From: Escherichia coli
GTDB taxonomy: Bacteria; Pseudomonadota; Gammaproteobacteria; Enterobacterales; Enterobacteriaceae
Length of the DNA stretch: 64,000 bases
Reading direction: 5' to 3' (one strand)
Assembly (NCBI RefSeq): GCF_003334785.1
Contig: NZ_QOWV01000012.1
How positions within the stretch are numbered: the stretch's first letter is position 1; every line of letters starts with the position of its first letter. Made by a program: the position numbers and the translations under genes. Below the pieces are notes generated by a model. The model searched no databases and was not told where the DNA came from. It saw nothing but the letters and a program-made list of their open reading frames with translations. Shown in pieces: positions 14,036-14,468 of the stretch.

Positions 14036-14073
14036 AAAATCAAGGAAGAAACAAGAAAGGAAGTAAAGATAAT

Positions 14074-14160
14074 TGGTGCGAGGGGGGGGACTTGAACCCC
14101 CACGTCCGTAAGGACACTAACACCTGAAGCTAGCGCGTCTACCAATTCCGCCACCTTCGC
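14074..14160 (-). tRNA. leuV: tRNA-Leu (anticodon CAG)
   Basis: Reverse complement reads GCGAAGGTGGCGGAATTGGTAGACGCGCTAGCTTCAGGTGTTAGTGTCCTTACGGACGTGGGGGTTCAAGTCCCCCCCCTCGCACCA, the E. coli tRNA-Leu1 sequence with encoded CCA. Confidence 0.9.
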
Positions 14161-14201
14161 ATACCATCAATTCTTAAAAAGAATTGCTACCACGGAGGCG
14201 C

Positions 14202-14229
14202 ATTCTAGTGGTTTTCAGCTTTTCGTCAA
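14202..14229 (-). promoter_or_regulatory. Candidate stable-RNA promoter for the tRNA-Leu gene
   Basis: On minus strand TTGACG -35 and TAGAAT -10 separated by 16 bp, followed by GC-rich discriminator, about 40 bp upstream of tRNA 5' end. Confidence 0.5.
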
Positions 14230-14282
14230 TAGTTAATTATCGCCGGAGGTGTAATTGCTGAAAAAATGTCCATCAGGAAACT

Positions 14283-14466
14283 AACGTGCAGGTTTGGTAG
14301 TTTTGTAGGTCGGATAAGGCGTTCACGCCGCATCCGACACGGTATTTGGGTGCAGATGCCAGATGCGACGCGGGCGCGTCTTATCTGGCCTACGAAGGGC
14401 TAACGTGCAGGTTTTGTAGGTCGGATAAGGCGTTCACGCCGCATCCGACACGGTATTCGGCGAGAT
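14283..14466. repeat. REP/BIME element (two REP copies flanking a central segment)
   Basis: Two near-identical copies of ctaacgtgcaggtttggtagttttgtaggtcggataaggcgttcacgccgcatccgacacggtatt. Confidence 0.6.
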
Positions 14467-14468
14467 AA

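Follow-up and report, generated by a model that had tools for sequence, protein, structure and literature searches.

A single tRNA-Leu(CAG) gene in place of the leuQ-leuP-leuV triplet in an Escherichia coli sequence: a probable recent deletion between identical tandem copies

The closest described relative of the locus considered here is the leuQPV (or "leuV") operon of Escherichia coli K-12, which encodes tRNA-Leu1 by three tandem tRNA-Leu genes separated by spacers of 34 and 28 nt. On the + strand of K-12 the genes lie in the order leuV, leuP, leuQ, and transcription runs from leuQ through leuP to leuV. The operon is highly expressed and is oriented head-on to replication (PMC8510543); termination was reported to be Rho-dependent, and processing of the transcript to depend on RNase P and to be independent of RNase E (Mohanty & Kushner 2007, PMC2190699). 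An engineered strain in which all three genes were deleted (delta-leuVPQ) is viable and bears a cost mainly in rich media and fast growth (Raval et al. 2023, eLife, PMC9981150). Strain-to-strain variation in runs of tRNA genes among E. coli was noted before in PMC2884548, which also cites literature on the rates at which tandem repeats are deleted.

The window, i.e., the whole 64-kb stretch of E. coli DNA that was analysed, contains exactly one tRNA gene, an 87-nt tRNA-Leu(CAG) placed by ARAGORN at 14074-14160 on the - strand, and the Rfam tRNA model (RF00005) concurs, with a match at 14077-14160 (-) of 48.5 bits. A preliminary description of this DNA had called a single such gene between yjjZ and rsmC, and the tRNA scan and Rfam agree with it. 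The intergenic region of yjjZ and rsmC corresponds exactly to the interval 14036-14468, the tRNA is transcribed towards yjjZ, and the gene has its C8 run intact and the CCA end encoded. The features to which the text refers are the following:

13799..14035, + strand: yjjZ (DUF1435), the convergent left neighbour, from the ORF list and the annotation of a co-linear relative
14036..14073, - strand: 3' trailer, equal to that of leuV (CCA-AUUAUC...) and unstructured, from its text compared with Table 1 of PMC2190699
14073..14161, unstranded: 89-nt segment that occurs twice in the nearest relative as a perfect direct repeat 236 nt apart, from base-by-base comparison with FDAARGOS_1337
14074..14160, - strand: tRNA-Leu(CAG) gene, 87 nt, from ARAGORN, Rfam and string identity to K-12 leuQ and leuV
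14161..14201, - strand: GC-rich discriminator GCGCCTCC (14201-14194) and 5' leader of about 35 nt, read from the sequence with a predicted start site
14202..14229, - strand: operon promoter, leuQ-proximal, with the -35 element TTGACG at 14229-14224, a 16-nt spacer and the -10 element TAGAAT at 14207-14202
14305-14339, 14358-14393 and 14416-14450, unstranded: three REP (palindromic unit) elements forming a BIME in the promoter-rsmC interval, from a pattern search
14469..15500, - strand: rsmC (16S rRNA m2G1207 methyltransferase), the right neighbour, from the ORF list and annotation
22081..22568, unstranded: tandem BIME array of 4.8 x 101 nt with 94% matches, between yjjV and yjjW, from TRF on the window and on a relative

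Upstream of the tRNA on the - strand, the promoter scan returned a strong sigma-70 match (TTGACG-16-TAGAAT, 10/12 consensus positions) that is followed by the GC-rich discriminator; a plausible stable-RNA promoter had been proposed here in the preliminary description. The leader and discriminator are identical in sequence to those of K-12 leuQ. The leader also holds a perfect palindrome, AATTCTTTTTAAGAATT, at 14168-14184 (-), in the stretch that separates the predicted start site from the tRNA, and the same palindrome is kept in K-12 and in O157:H7. At the other end, the trailer of the window gene is the leuV trailer CCAAUUAUC, in agreement with Table 1 of PMC2190699, and the tRNA itself is identical over all 87 nt to leuQ and leuV of K-12. 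The surviving gene thus combines the promoter, discriminator and leader of leuQ with the 3' trailer of leuV. A scan of the window found no terminator-like site on the - strand 3' of the tRNA; the K-12 operon likewise has no intrinsic terminator (PMC2190699), and this absence is consistent with the Rho-dependent termination reported there.

The likeness to K-12 therefore extends to the site, the promoter core, the discriminator, the leader, the trailer and the leuQ/leuV tRNA sequence, whereas the number of genes differs: K-12 has three and the window one, and both the leuV-leuP spacer ACAGTCATCTTACTTTTTTTGATATCGCCTCGTT and the leuP-leuQ spacer CCAGTGCGAGCAATATCAACGTGGTTTT are missing from the window together with leuP. 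The window thereby departs from the canonical three-gene form, with its spacers of about 28-34 nt, and holds a reduced derivative of the leuQPV tRNA-Leu(CAG) operon of Enterobacterales. This is a difference of presence or absence and not a statistical signal, so that chance is not at issue. The preliminary description had given K-12 three tandem identical copies; the count of three is right, but the identity is not: leuP carries a one-base difference to the other two, C48U (on the + strand A for G at what is position 14113 of the window), which lies in the stem of the variable arm and turns a C-G pair there into U-G. The substitution is also present in the clone-mates of the window and in 9/9 three-copy drafts, one of which has a mismatch in its third copy as well. 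The supposedly identical triplet is in fact two identical genes and a conserved variant.

The REP elements upstream of the promoter, within which Rfam places a naRNA4 match at 14308-14390 (REP region 14305..14450), are separate from the change in tRNA copy number. Their number varies among strains, with a promoter-to-rsmC distance of 189-308 nt; the window has three palindromic units in this interval, K-12 is without the first, and O157:H7 has one.

The comparison with the nearest relatives narrows the change to a single step. Against the complete genome of FDAARGOS_1337 the window shows, over all 64 kb, 12 SNPs and one 236-nt in-register gap, and no other indel; only 2 of the SNPs lie across 14161-29000, and most of the 12 appear to be private to FDAARGOS_1337 rather than to the window. 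VG48B2, A14 and Z1323CEC0018 are just as close to the window (2-4 SNPs per 25 kb). Over 25 kb, each of the ten best complete genomes matches the window at 100.0% identity, and in every one the alignment is broken at the tRNA into two or more pieces. In eight of the ten the span is 236-237 nt longer than in the window, which fits three copies; the excess in Z1323CEC0018 is 121 nt, as would suit two; and the tenth, with an extra IS insertion, was left unclassified for copy number. The annotations are in line with these spans, with three tRNAs in FDAARGOS_1337, VG48B2 and A14 and two in Z1323CEC0018. The single-copy state was seen in none of the ten nearest complete genomes (nine of them classified), and a single-piece 100% match to the window was found in none of the 5,426 RefSeq complete E. 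coli genomes. Seen against its clone, then, the one-copy state of the window would be derived, very recent and private to this one sequence.

The missing 236 nt, which in FDAARGOS_1337 (NZ_CP070026.1) occupy 1750797-1751032, comprise leuP, one further tRNA copy and both spacers (34 and 28 nt), and amount to 121 + 115 nt. The loss is a whole number of repeat periods, in register, with its endpoints within a perfect direct repeat; the junction falls somewhere inside the 89-nt segment 14073..14161 and has left no scar. Endpoints in perfect repeats, exact periods and the lack of a scar are what is seen in deletions between short tandem direct repeats in E. coli, a class which comprises RecA-dependent unequal exchange and RecA-independent replication slippage or sister-strand misalignment, and nothing sets the case of the window apart from it. 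Background on the rates of such events comes from work of the Lovett laboratory.

We favour, with a probability of about 0.6, the reading that the window records a genuine and very recent deletion that gave rise to a one-gene derivative of leuQ-leuP-leuV. Unequal recombination between sister chromatids, or slippage and misalignment during replication, would have paired the identical leuQ and leuV copies and removed the 236 nt between them; from the sequence the two pathways cannot be told apart. Two observations, among others, speak for a real event of this kind. The two-copy allele of Z1323CEC0018 provides an intermediate within the clone of the window itself: like the window, it shows the in-register loss of a repeat unit, here a single one (115 nt), as would follow from a leuP x leuQ exchange, while unlike the window it keeps two genes and the leuV-leuP spacer. 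Secondly, the uninterrupted single-copy arrangement is present in hundreds of complete genomes (see below), including many O157:H7 genomes that were assembled independently.

The product is predicted to be a functional, monocistronic pre-tRNA made from an unchanged promoter, which we take to be growth-rate-regulated (FIS/growth-rate control). Its 5' end would be matured by RNase P and its 3' end trimmed by exonucleases, so that RNase P, in contrast to its part in K-12, would be needed for 5' maturation alone and not for separating cistrons. The dosage of tRNA-Leu(CAG) would fall from three to one at the locus, and from four to two in the genome if the usual leuT, which lies outside the window, is present. 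Growth in rich medium would be expected to suffer modestly at most. The loss of two genes should be tolerable because the engineered deletion of all three is viable; that strain resembles the window in its lowered tRNA-Leu(CAG) dosage at the same locus and differs from it in that all three genes were removed, whereas the window keeps one copy that is predicted to be expressed (PMC9981150).

By the preliminary description, its reading would be refuted if a single copy were the common state; the frequencies came out otherwise. The spacer junctions served as markers of two or more copies in a search of 5,426 complete E. coli genomes. Of these, 4,984 have the leuV-leuP junction, 4,965 the leuP-leuQ junction and 4,963 both, contiguously, i.e., about 91.5% have three copies. 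About 23 genomes (~0.4%) have two, 21 of them with the leuV-leuP spacer alone and 2 with the leuP-leuQ spacer alone. For the single-copy state, a query of 60 + 87 + 60 nt was used, with the E-value limit set so that nothing short of an uninterrupted 207-nt match would pass, and 425 of the 5,426 genomes (7.8%) gave such a match; about 15 fit no copy class. Query coverage had been tried as a single-copy count and was dropped, since overlapping pieces are joined and multi-copy genomes also give 100% coverage. Some genomes have up to three places that match a spacer junction, which may represent duplicated or longer arrays.

Most of the single-copy genomes are O157:H7, in which the state is clade-wide, i.e., fixed. 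Of 60 genomes taken at even intervals from the 425, 43 carry the O157:H7-type flank, 11 are identical to the core of the window and 6 match it at 96-97.6%. The allele of O157:H7 and of the scattered lineages is built as in the window, with the leuQ leader, one tRNA and the leuV trailer. That of O157:H7 nevertheless differs from the window in having 99.0% identity over the 207-nt core, 35 differences in the left (3.06-kb) and 38 in the right (2.7-kb) flank, another REP content and an independent origin, and it is clade-wide there while that of the window is private to one sequence.

The scarcity of two-copy relative to one-copy genomes (about 23 versus 425, which are counts of genomes and not of events) would fit the effect of the leuP substitution, which splits the homology that leuP shares with its neighbours into 39 + 47 nt, as against 89 uninterrupted nt between leuQ and leuV. 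Selection could also add to the excess.

The promoter (-35, -10 and discriminator) together with the 5' end of the first tRNA was then used as a pattern to scan species-representative genomes, and it was found in at least 120 species representatives of Enterobacterales, from genera including Escherichia, Salmonella, Citrobacter, Enterobacter, Klebsiella, Pantoea, Erwinia and Dickeya. Among the matches listed, 106 loci had sufficient sequence downstream for copy number to be evaluated: three copies are present at 98, two at five and one at three, and none of these 106 has more than three tandem copies. The spacings in the three-copy loci among the matches listed, about 113-120 nt, are alike across Enterobacteriaceae, Erwiniaceae and Dickeya. 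Because 98 of the 106 evaluable species among the matches listed and 91.5% of the complete E. coli genomes have three copies, the triplet is best regarded as ancestral and ancient, the reduced forms as sporadic and the single copy as a recurrent derived state. The two-copy representatives are Erwinia persicina, a Pluralibacter MAG, 'Enterobacter' pulveris, Atlantibacter hermannii and an Enterobacterales MAG. Those with a single tRNA-Leu(CAG) are Escherichia whittamii Sa2BVA5, Winslowiella iniecta and Enterobacter sichuanensis, all of them drafts, for which real loss and collapse are both possible; the contig name of E. whittamii gives a coverage of only about 8.8x.

The preliminary description had offered either recombination between tandem repeats or an assembly collapse, and these are the two readings that are left after testing. 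By the second, the strain has the triplet and the assembler crossed the shared 89-nt tRNA node only once, so that the loop with leuP and the two spacers was dropped. We consider this possible but rather doubtful. By our own reasoning, the missing block is exactly the loop that would form in a de Bruijn graph with k below 89, and the window assembly may be a short-read draft, given that none of the complete E. coli genomes in RefSeq matches the window at 100% in a single piece. The private nature of the single copy, which is in none of the ten nearest complete genomes (one unclassified), is likewise what a collapse would give, and the neighbourhood can be troublesome, as is seen from a single-copy draft with a 100-N gap in the adjacent REP region. 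Against this, the window has no Ns in its 64 kb and no further structural discrepancy from its relatives over that length. It also holds intact the 22081-22568 array of 4.8 x 101 nt, which is base-for-base identical, at full copy number, in the complete genome of FDAARGOS_1337; the longest exact internal repeat of this array in an exact-repeat scan is 85 nt, which is below 89 nt and makes it an imperfect control.

The behaviour of other assemblies at this locus also speaks against a collapse. Of ten de-duplicated assemblies that share the RsmC allele of the window, nine have the triplet resolved. Where short-read assemblies fail they tend to end the contig inside the tRNA-Leu array, as happens in six species-representative drafts of other Enterobacterales among the matches listed, and the array is indeed a recurrent contig break point for short-read assemblers. 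The single-copy share in the draft samples (1/10, and 3/106 among the matches listed) is no higher than in complete genomes (7.8%), and genuine one- and two-copy alleles arise often, a two-copy form within the clone of the window too.

If the deletion is genuine, as we favour, another E. coli lineage that already carried the allele might still have supplied it through homologous recombination. Alleles with a single copy are in circulation in many lineages, and about a fifth of the sampled single-copy genomes are 100% identical to the window over the 207-nt core. The flanks, however, make such an import very improbable. Ten sampled single-copy genomes were found to have ten different flank haplotypes, with pairwise differences at 12-209 sites in the 3.06-kb left flank and at 14-88 sites in the 2.7-kb right flank; their REP content varies as well. 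Each is perfectly identical to the window for only 183-578 nt around the tRNA, and all are much further from it (at least 20 sites in the 3.06-kb left flank and at least 7 in the 2.7-kb right flank) than is a three-copy clone-mate, which has 0 and 1 differences, respectively. An import would thus need an unusually short tract, while a deletion de novo needs no donor. Because the sampled single-copy genomes differ in flank haplotypes and REP content, the single-copy state arose repeatedly, and the allele of the window is best read as one more independent event and not as an imported one. That a single copy is ancestral, and that K-12-like strains expanded it to three, has nothing for it except that single-copy strains exist, and was rejected as wholly implausible in view of the triplet in 98 of the 106 evaluable species among the matches listed, in 91.5% of complete E. 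coli genomes and in the clone-mates of the window.

Several other features were recorded in the window and its relatives. In the 22081-22568 array, Rfam gives four to five naRNA4 matches on the + strand and one on the - strand. Among the ten nearest genomes, RM10410 (NZ_CP042350.1) carries an IS4-like ISVsa5 insertion, with two transposase annotations, within an otherwise 100%-identical 25 kb, and FDAARGOS_1337 carries unique protein accessions for yjjG, nadR, thrA, thrB and yaaJ. The conventional origin of the K-12 map falls in the window (48727-48846 and surroundings), with arcA, yjjY and yjtD followed by thrL and thrABC; thrL corresponds to the Rfam Thr leader (122 bits), and the source record is not rotated to begin at thrL. 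The annotation of a co-linear relative places a small helix-turn-helix gene between deoD and lplA (about 29685-29948) and a truncated NadS-family pseudogene fragment just past nadR (about 35477-35572). The other Rfam matches at gathering score are the tpke11 sRNA upstream of dnaK at 62626-62703 (+), ES036, just above threshold, at 54129-54171 (-), and two naRNA4/REP matches at 35576-35654 (+) and 39972-40049 (-).

What the window shows belongs to a known class of polymorphism, at an operon that is well characterised, and is no new kind of feature. Hundreds of complete genomes in public collections already carry the exact allele, and by itself the case matters little. For estimates of tRNA-Leu(CAG) supply in the source strain, one gene should be counted at this locus, subject to a check of the reads, and the proportions in E. 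coli (91.5% with three copies, 0.4% with two, 7.8% with one) provide a baseline against which similar calls can be judged. Across Enterobacterales the array has kept to exactly three copies, despite a leuQ/leuV repeat through which two genes are readily and repeatedly lost. Either the length of homology or selection could explain why one-copy genomes outnumber two-copy ones (425 to about 23). That reduction to one copy has been repeatedly selected in certain niches (e.g., in slow-growing or host-associated strains), beyond the drift that is tolerated, seems to us an unlikely extension; if it were true, O157:H7 would be one case, and the window a fresh instance, of an adaptive tuning of dosage for the tRNA that reads the most-used codon, CUG.
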